Shown here in pieces: positions 28,171-30,338 of a DNA stretch of 64,000 nt. A model generated the notes under the pieces. That model did not search any database. It saw nothing but the letters and a program-made list of their open reading frames with translations, and was not told the origin of the DNA. A program made the translations under genes and the position numbers. Position 1 is the first letter of the stretch; the number at the start of each line of letters is the position of its first letter. The stretch lies in contig NC_135916.1 in NCBI RefSeq assembly GCF_964194155.1, forward strand, positions 1,736,001 to 1,800,000. The letters run 5' to 3'. The stretch is from Cetorhinus maximus (taxonomy: Eukaryota).

Positions 28171-29903
28171 AAAACAGTCAAAAAGACACAGGAAACCCAC
28201 AGTCACATAACATGCCACAGATTGTCGAACACAAAACAACTCTCACTCAAAGTTGTTGAATCAATCAGTATCTCTTTGAACCTCACATTTATTTCCAGAT
28301 ATTGACAGATTCAGATGCAATTCACTCTCACTGATTGCACCAGGGCATAGAATTAATCCCACTCGTGACTACATAAGAGATACTTAGCCATACACGGAGG
28401 TACAATTAAATCCACCTATAATACAAGATTACTGCTTAGTGCAAAATTAGCTCGATCACAGTACACGGATAGCGAGAGGACATAATGAAATACACAATTT
28501 CTCAATCCTAAACAAAAATTGTGAAACGAAATGAATTCTACACCGCAAGGTTGACAAAAATGACATTTAGAGTATTAATCCTGCAGTCATACACAGTACC
28601 ACAAACTGACAGGTGCTGAAGGATAACACCTTTCGTGTGTAGCACCAGAGACTGATACACACGGAATGAATCTAACATTTTTACAGCTTGTCAAAAGCAG
28701 ATGGCAGCAGAAGCAAAGTCCACCTCACAGTCACTTCCAGGCCCTGACAGCTATAGAATAAAATGCATAAATGAATTGCAGTGACGGAGAGGTTCAGAGC
28801 TAAAGTCAGTATCCCATTGCAGAAAACAGCAAGTGCAGAATATAACAGCTTGTCCCGATCAGTATGGAGGGCGGTGAGTTTGCCACTATCATTGCCTCTT
28901 TAACGGGCGGGGAGGAGGGGGGCTAGCTCGGCAAGTTCCAAGAGCAGCATCAGGCCCGTTGCTTCTCGACGTGTGTTCAGAAACGATAAGGTGCAAGTTA
29001 TTGTGACCTGGCTCCATCTGCAGACCGAACACGAGTCGTGCAACAAGATAAATACTCATTCGGAACCACTTCAAATTGGAGTGAATTAATAACCTGCAAT
29101 CTGGATACAATATTATAATATAATTTTATTATTTTTAAAATAATATCACAGCTGTACATTCAGGCCGATATTGCTTAACCGCAGCATTCGGTAAACGTGA
29201 ATTTCCGCCGGCTGTTAGGACTGTAAAAAGGTCCGAGTTTAAACACGAATGGATTCCTGATTTTAAAAGCGAGTGTGGTACTTGCAATTAAATATGATAT
29301 AGTACAATAAGGGAGGCCTATCTTTTAATAGTTTGGAACTGACTGGGTTAAATTTAACGGCGATTTTCTGCAAGAAATTAATCTATTACTGTTTCCCGGC
29401 TCTGATGCACATTTAAACATGAAACTTTGCATTTATCAAAGACAGGTTTCATTCATTGGTTTTGTGTGAACTAAGGTGTAGCCTTCAGTCTGCAACTCCG
29501 CCAAAGTCTTTGTGAATGAGACTCAGGAACTCATGTTATGTTTGTCATATCTGTTTGATTCAGTTTGTAATGAAAAAAAGACAGGGTGAAAATAGTGCGA
29601 AGAAGCGAGAATGTTGTCTCAAAATAGCTCCTCCTGTTCAAAGTATAATAAATGATGGCCTTTATCTTGTGGACTGGGTGTTAGTTTGGGAGCTGTCAGC
29701 TAAGCTTGGAGTTGAGCTTCGAGAGGAAGAAAGGAAGTGAATTCCTGAAAACCGAACTAAATTAAACCATGAAACCTTGTGTGACTCACGATAGTTTTGT
29801 GAATGGAGAATGCGCAGATGGAAACGCTGTGTTTATATAAAACTACATCTCGCTTTCCCTCTCCGGCTCTGAGGTCACTTGCTCTCGATGTGAGGTTGTG
29901 GGC

Positions 29904-29919
29904 GGCTCTTAGAAGAGCC
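29904..29919 (-). terminator. Histone 3' stem-loop of the truncated H4
   Basis: Minus strand CCAAA-GGCTCTTCTAAGAGCC-GCCCA, followed by a purine-rich GAGAGC downstream element. Confidence 0.9.
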
Positions 29920-29952
29920 TTTGGGTTTTGTTATAGAGTCGGGTCGATTTGT

Positions 29953-30012
29953 TCAGCCGCCGAATCCATAGAGAGTGCGGCCCTGGCGTTTCAGAGCGTA
30001 CACCACATCCAT
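29953..30012 (-). pseudogene. H4: 5'-deleted histone H4 retaining only Met84 to stop ([19 protein letters not shown])
   Basis: Near-identical to 50175-50234. Similarity stops exactly at the ATG and switches to H2A upstream sequence. Confidence 0.9.
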
Positions 30013-30164
30013 TTGTAAAGGAATTGTCCTTTGTTTAGCTAAGACGATTTCTGTGCGATGTTTCCTTTGATTAATTTTTTGGCGGACTTTTCCAGTTTGA
30101 AATATATAATCGTTTGTTTAACTGATGATTTGGCGCCCTTAACTTCCGACTTCATACGTTGCTT

Positions 30165-30285
30165 GCCCGCATTGGTGAGTCAGGCAGAAATCTGATTGGT
30201 AATATGAAGAATATTATGAGCTATAATATAATTGACCAATCAGCTCTGAGCGCACCACCATTCCTCCTGAGGGTATAAGAGAACT
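30165..30285 (+). promoter_or_regulatory. H2A promoter (CCAAT boxes, TATA)
   Basis: ATTGG near 30171 and 30195, CCAAT near 30236, TATAAGA near 30274. Confidence 0.7.
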
Positions 30286-30338
30286 GAAAGAAGGCGGATA
30301 TCAGCATTCTCTGTGAAAGTGCTTGTGAGATTGTTACC

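Follow-up and report, generated by a model that had tools for sequence, protein, structure and literature searches.

In a cartilaginous fish histone array, the upstream region of an H2A gene is joined directly to codon 85 of a histone H4 gene, leaving an H4 3′ stub whose open reading frame encodes 19 residues, H4(85-103), of the same sequence as the mammalian precursor of osteogenic growth peptide (pre-OGP). Judging from its sequence, this stub is most likely a deletion pseudogene that is under no selection and from which no meaningful peptide would be made, and it belongs with the pseudogene fragments of histone clusters. The original prediction had suggested that a dedicated OGP-like gene may have arisen here, with a chance pseudogene as the alternative; it is this alternative that fits best, and the case for a dedicated OGP gene is weak. 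A relic is favoured because the array is rich in deletions and because H3 has been lost in the stub's own unit. As a relic, the stub would be of little importance beyond illustrating turnover in a large histone array. The cartilaginous-fish setting, which had also been proposed, agrees with the H2B cluster, where 14 of the 15 listed members are named sharks or rays. Positions are those of the window, that is, the whole 64-kb stretch of DNA analysed, and the features are collected in Table 1.

Table 1. Features of the stub unit and of its undeleted counterpart
Feature	Position	Strand	Remarks
Purine-rich downstream element variant (label presumed from position)	29873..29890	-	one substitution and a 1-nt insertion
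Histone 3′ stem-loop from the donor H4	29904..29919	-	same 16 letters as array H4 genes
H4 3′ stub, codons 85-103 and stop	29953..30012	-	identical in 3/3 genomic copies
Deletion junction	30011..30012	.	2-bp AT microhomology; 3,366 bp fewer than in unit 49194-54778
Two TTTGGCG(G/C) motifs, at 30078 and 30129, flanking TATATA	30078..30136	+
TATATA in H2A upstream region	30103..30108	.	7/8 to TATAWAWR, either strand
CCAAT boxes at 30171 (-), 30195 (-) and 30236 (+); H2A TATA-like box at 30274	30171..30281	.
Intact H2A, head-to-head with the stub	30339..30731	+
Orphan H3 stem-loop and downstream element, second deletion in the stub unit	31160..31219	-	Rfam 34.8 bits
Intact H4 of the stub's unit	31459..31770	-
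Counterpart without the deletion: complete H4 (50175-50486) plus spacer as far as H2A (53927)	50175..53926	-
Segment absent from the stub unit	50235-53600		part of the undeleted counterpart

The junction and the H4 stub

Self-comparison of the window bore out the proposed deletion and its microhomology. Positions 28972-30012 match 49194-50234 at 97.6% identity and positions 30011-31191 match 53599-54778 at 94.7%, the stub unit at 30 kb having 3,366 bp fewer than the unit at 50 kb, and the two bases AT are common to both donors (…TTTACAA-AT-TG and …CACCGCC-AT-GG). On the minus strand the junction reads TTTACAA-ATG-GAT, which places the break at the internal Met codon of H4 and the stub head-to-head with H2A, both as predicted. 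The stub, located inside the histone array, is 98.3% identical to H4 nt 253-312 and lacks 84 of the 103 H4 codons as well as the H4 promoter, both deleted. Repair or slippage at the 2-bp microhomology could have made the join, which would have landed by chance on the AT of Met85, and the 3.37-kb deletion would have taken the promoter and codons 1-84 of an additional H4 beside H2A. The spacing between H2A and H4 is 3,441 bp in the counterpart, versus 3,555 bp in four other undeleted units.

In mammals, pre-OGP is described in the available text of two sources as a 19-mer whose translation starts at AUG85 of the H4 mRNA through leaky scanning (PMC5133884, PMC4705651). The claim that the stub encodes exactly this precursor stands, since its translation is identical to the 19-mer given in the accessible part of PMC5133884. 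As far as the consulted passages go, the two share all 19 residues, the start codon and the 14-mer OGP contained within (PMC5133884, PMC4705651, PMC9154745). They differ in that the mammalian peptide arises from full-length H4 mRNA, whereas the shark stub is a separate genomic copy with a weaker start context and a putative product. Additionally, OGP is genetically inseparable from H4 in mammals, according to the sections seen of PMC9154745, and a free-standing pre-OGP gene was not reported anywhere in the literature searched, whose coverage left out most subscription journals.

The 3′ stem-loop had been called intact, and its 16 letters do equal those of the array H4 genes. It scores 24.4 bits against Rfam RF00032 (29880-29924), under the 34-bit cut-off, and the stem-loop of the adjoining intact H4 also falls under it, at 26.6 bits. 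On the other hand, the downstream element, which had likewise been called intact, differs in the window copy from the type of the full-length genes by a substitution and a 1-nt insertion. Among 59 H4 3′ ends, this insertion was present in 2/3 stubs, in 3/3 copies of a second H4 truncation (from nt 138, see below) and in 0/53 full-length H4 genes, so that 5/6 truncated copies carry it, these copies not being independent of one another. The insertion sits behind the GAGAGC core, which is itself kept, and its occurrence in broken copies hints at relaxed constraint or at shared ancestry. The reading frame, the stem-loop and TATATA were all taken over from the two donors without change.

As a separate observation, the H4 stem-loops of the array (for example 29904-29919 and 31385-31430) all have the loop UCUA followed by GCCCA and are sub-cut-off in Rfam, unlike most H4 copies seen on contig C32, which carry the usual stem-loop form.

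A deletion-prone histone array

The contig that includes the window (C39) was mapped over 1.06 Mb, with the array at 0.97-1.94 Mb. It contains 42 H1-marked units that are very uneven in length and content, mostly 15-34 kb long with 4 units of at least 35 kb, and the intact genes mapped comprise 52 H4, 37 H3 and 29 H2A. The 1.06 Mb contained only three H2B genes, which lie on its left edge and close to its centre, in each case outside the repeat units. The repeat units carry H1, H4, H3 and often H2A, with no H2B, and their direction flips at about 1.67 Mb, running one way to the left and the opposite way to the right.

A census of gaps of at least 100 bp gave 38 raw classes, a rough count in which some are redundant or artefactual. 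Four distinct breaks lie inside histone coding sequence, at H4 nt 138, H4 nt 253, H2A nt 36 and H3 nt 316, and 13 stem-loops in the array are orphans that no gene precedes. Beside H2A, five units have an intact H4 slot, three have the stub in its place and three have lost the slot altogether. In fact, the stub unit itself bears a second deletion, missed by the earlier reading of this DNA, whose junction near 31218 has removed H3 and left its stem-loop, and the same loss with the same retained stem-loop is seen in 3/3 stub units. The orphan H3 stem-loop, which serves as an internal control, outscores that of the stub in Rfam (34.8 versus 24.4 bits), and an intact stem-loop is thus the usual leftover of deletion in this array. 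The H3 deletion runs between short similar sequences, with CTCGGTGT on both donors.

The truncation from H4 nt 138 is also present in three copies (C39 1011712, 1109303 and 1206417), and it likewise retains Met85, the stem-loop and the 3′ signals. A stop codon lies upstream of Met85 in two of the three, and in one the pre-OGP frame carries Ser in place of Tyr; this truncation is decaying. Comparable fragments are known in human histone clusters, such as H2AC2P, H2BC16P and H3C5P, named in the portion of PMC9526256 that was available. The likeness, to the extent covered by that source, is that of a broken copy among intact, intronless stem-loop genes (PMC9526256). The stub differs from these pseudogenes in starting exactly at an in-frame AUG, in keeping an open 19-codon frame with its 3′ signals, and in pointing away from the promoter of its neighbour.

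The leader and the prospect of transcription

The palindromic TATATA upstream of the stub was confirmed, as were the CCAAT boxes in the stub's direction (minus strand, 30171 and 30195) and the ATG-free leader, no minus-strand ATG being present between 30155 and 30012. TATATA occurs in 25 of the 30 H2A upstream regions of the array, with TATAAA in four more, and in 0/11 from other clusters; in the array it mostly has no gene behind it, and it is present in undeleted units, being older than the deletion. Across the 64-kb window, no RNA gene was found behind TATATA, and only histone stem-loops reached the Rfam cut-offs. The motifs on either side, which we take to be E2F-like, are found in 29/30 H2A upstream regions of the array and 11/11 from other clusters, and are likely H2A upstream elements. 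A CA dinucleotide lies 28 nt downstream of TATATA. The leader shares 97-98% identity with undeleted haplotypes, and nearly all its letters from TATATA to the join are present in undeleted units; therefore, it gives no sign of remodelling.

The break also changed the start context from ACCGCC-ATG-G to TTACAA-ATG-G, so that AUG85 no longer has a purine at -3, which by the Kozak rule makes for a weaker start. That the break falls at Met85 does not point to design, because the ATGs of H4 lie at nt 194, 206 and 253 and any break in nt 207-255 makes Met85 the first AUG, nearly all of these keeping a better context. Moreover, this exactness adds nothing, because a break a few bases upstream would serve selection for pre-OGP equally well or better. 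Met85 becomes the first AUG after about 16% of breaks in H4, and 121 of 3,542 left breaks in the undeleted unit (3.4%) yield both an ATG-free leader and TATAWAW at a distance of 40-150 nt upstream, compared with 1.9% of random positions. The joint chance of a TATA-like box and an ATG-free leader before Met85 is thus about 0.5% per H4-breaking deletion, which is a real coincidence, though one chosen post hoc among many deletions and windows.

Divergent H2A/H2B gene pairs occur in birds and mammals, and a bidirectional H2A/H2B promoter had been invoked as an analogy for the stub. The likeness consists of the head-to-head arrangement, a distance of about 330 bp from one start codon to the other, and CCAAT in both orientations. 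In contrast, H2B of this genome stands in tandem to H2A, and the head-to-head layout of the stub was made by deletion. In 20 stretches from other histone loci, adjacent H2B-H2A pairs, which come from related units and are not independent, were tandem in 10/10, with H2B upstream of H2A and none divergent, and the array repeat units are free of H2B. The stub leader showed no homology to any of 12 H2B upstream regions (best E 0.83) and lacks ATTAGCAT, a motif shared by all 12. The analogy is accordingly not supported.

The leader was also considered as a relic H2B promoter and ruled out on the same two grounds, the absence of homology to the 12 H2B upstream regions and of ATTAGCAT. In all 12 H2B promoters examined (L131-L150 and three C39 genes), a CCAAT box is followed by ATTAGCAT, presumably an octamer-like variant, and then by a TATA-like box.

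Vertebrate promoters commonly fire upstream antisense transcripts, as noted in the parts consulted of PMC4085477 and PMC6203779. Antisense initiation from the H2A promoter, of the kind that yields PROMPTs or reverse start sites, is the only plausible transcription route for the stub. The two would differ in fate, PROMPTs being adenylated and degraded by the exosome in the accounts available (PMC4085477, PMC6203779), whereas a stub transcript would meet a histone stem-loop instead. Animal promoters often start transcription upstream in the antisense direction, so that by analogy the stub could give an RNA of about 180 nt running from about 30080 to 29899.

It is thus conceivable, though unlikely, that the stub is an accidental mini-mRNA, in which a reverse H2A start site would transcribe it and some pre-OGP would be made in S phase without being selected. 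This reading, with the same low likelihood, would have the RNA of about 180 nt processed and stabilised by U7 and SLBP through its captured 3′ elements, the stem-loop and the downstream element. The TATA-like box, the ATG-free leader, the CA at 28 nt and a stem-loop matching that of the array H4 genes are all compatible with such a transcript, and some reverse start sites of divergent promoters do carry TATA- or initiator-like motifs in the sections seen of PMC6203779. Yet the same source, in those sections, gives TATA in both directions as rare (1.9% of human divergent promoters), and TATA biases direction according to the part available of PMC4085477. Furthermore, the start context is weakened and the downstream element is altered in two of the three copies. 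On the favoured reading of the stub as a relic, any antisense RNA from the H2A promoter is predicted to be low-level, and stub RNA would be expected to add little to the AUG85 supply from some 300 H4 copies.

Copies, constraint and selection

The original prediction had asked for the junction to be sought in other array copies, and a junction 21-mer gave three matches in the genome, all on C39, against 0 for the control, with the frame and the stem-loop kept in each. The three copies lie in blocks that are 98.4-99.2% identical over about 56 kb, one of them inverted, and since these surroundings are near-identical, the junction is a single event copied together with them. The 19-codon remnant would then have been copied three times inside the duplicated block of about 56 kb, spreading by hitch-hiking in segmental duplication. 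The junction itself is a unique tag for the stub.

Across the three copies, the 60-bp frame of the stub has 0 variable sites. The same invariance was verified in 468/960 tiles of 60 bp in the aligned block and in 69/163 within 5 kb, and for the stretch from TATA to stop, 223/369 tiles were as conserved or more; a test on 60 bp has low power, and these figures demonstrate no excess conservation rather than neutrality. Additionally, the Met85 region has 304 matches genome-wide (275 + 29 + 0, the patterns needing an exact match), and the 29 without G at -3 correspond to the three stubs and 26 full-length copies. No second origin of a Met85 truncation was seen among these 29 candidate sites inspected, the 275 native-context sites in clusters outside C39 lying mostly outside the inspected set.

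These results bear on a selected OGP gene, which we regard as very improbable. Under it, pre-OGP would be uncoupled from H4 synthesis and the stub kept and amplified by selection; equally improbable is the free-standing AUG85 gene in which a reverse H2A start would give a stem-loop mRNA of about 180 nt and, from it, pre-OGP without H4. The frame does equal pre-OGP as given in the available text of PMC5133884, the layout has the low chance estimated above, and three intact copies exist. Against it, however, stand the single origin in larger duplicates that also carry the H3 deletion, the absence of excess conservation and of promoter remodelling, the lost -3 purine, the lack of an independent origin among the 29 candidate sites and the absence of any report of shark OGP in the literature searched. 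If true, the stub would exemplify gene birth through antisense-promoter capture, in the form of a natural gene dedicated to OGP; should it be both expressed and under selection, a clean loss-of-function test of OGP would become feasible, and OGP signalling would have a place in a fish whose skeleton is cartilage.

Assembled contigs from four public runs (X1, organism A, 62% read; X5 and X14, organism B; X15, organism C, presumably RNA) cover both arms of 29500-30338 among the 29 pieces listed of 255, and listed contigs ending at 30011/30012 run on as undeleted H4 or undeleted spacer; such contigs can reveal the presence of the junction and not its absence. A mis-joining of repeat units in the assembly is the least probable explanation of all, for although tandem arrays are hard to assemble and no listed contig in the four runs (29 of 255 pieces) bridges the junction, the latter occurs at three places, one inverted, and private variants within 100 bp of each join argue against mis-assembly.

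Besides the clusters, 56 dispersed H4 copies were found (L180-L235, C1-C26), of which 55 have no stem-loop at a distance of up to 80 nt from the stop. The majority end 10-30 nt past it, and many share a 3′ UTR type absent from the C39 array. They resemble the tailless histone retropseudogenes described in the consulted part of PMC5322556. With a search pattern that fixed 10 of the 19 pre-OGP codons, the exact pre-OGP frame was present in 36/56 of them, including 14/31 whose H4 frame is broken.

In full-length cluster H4 genes of C32, C450 and C678 (L156-L173, L177, L178), Thr or Ser replaces the Ala before Met85, and several also have Ile for Thr in the tail, which is unusual for H4; from their sequences, these copies are possibly a variant or decaying subfamily. 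Finally, C32 carries a much larger histone locus at 8.7-21.4 Mb, with well over 80 H3 matches across about 13 Mb.
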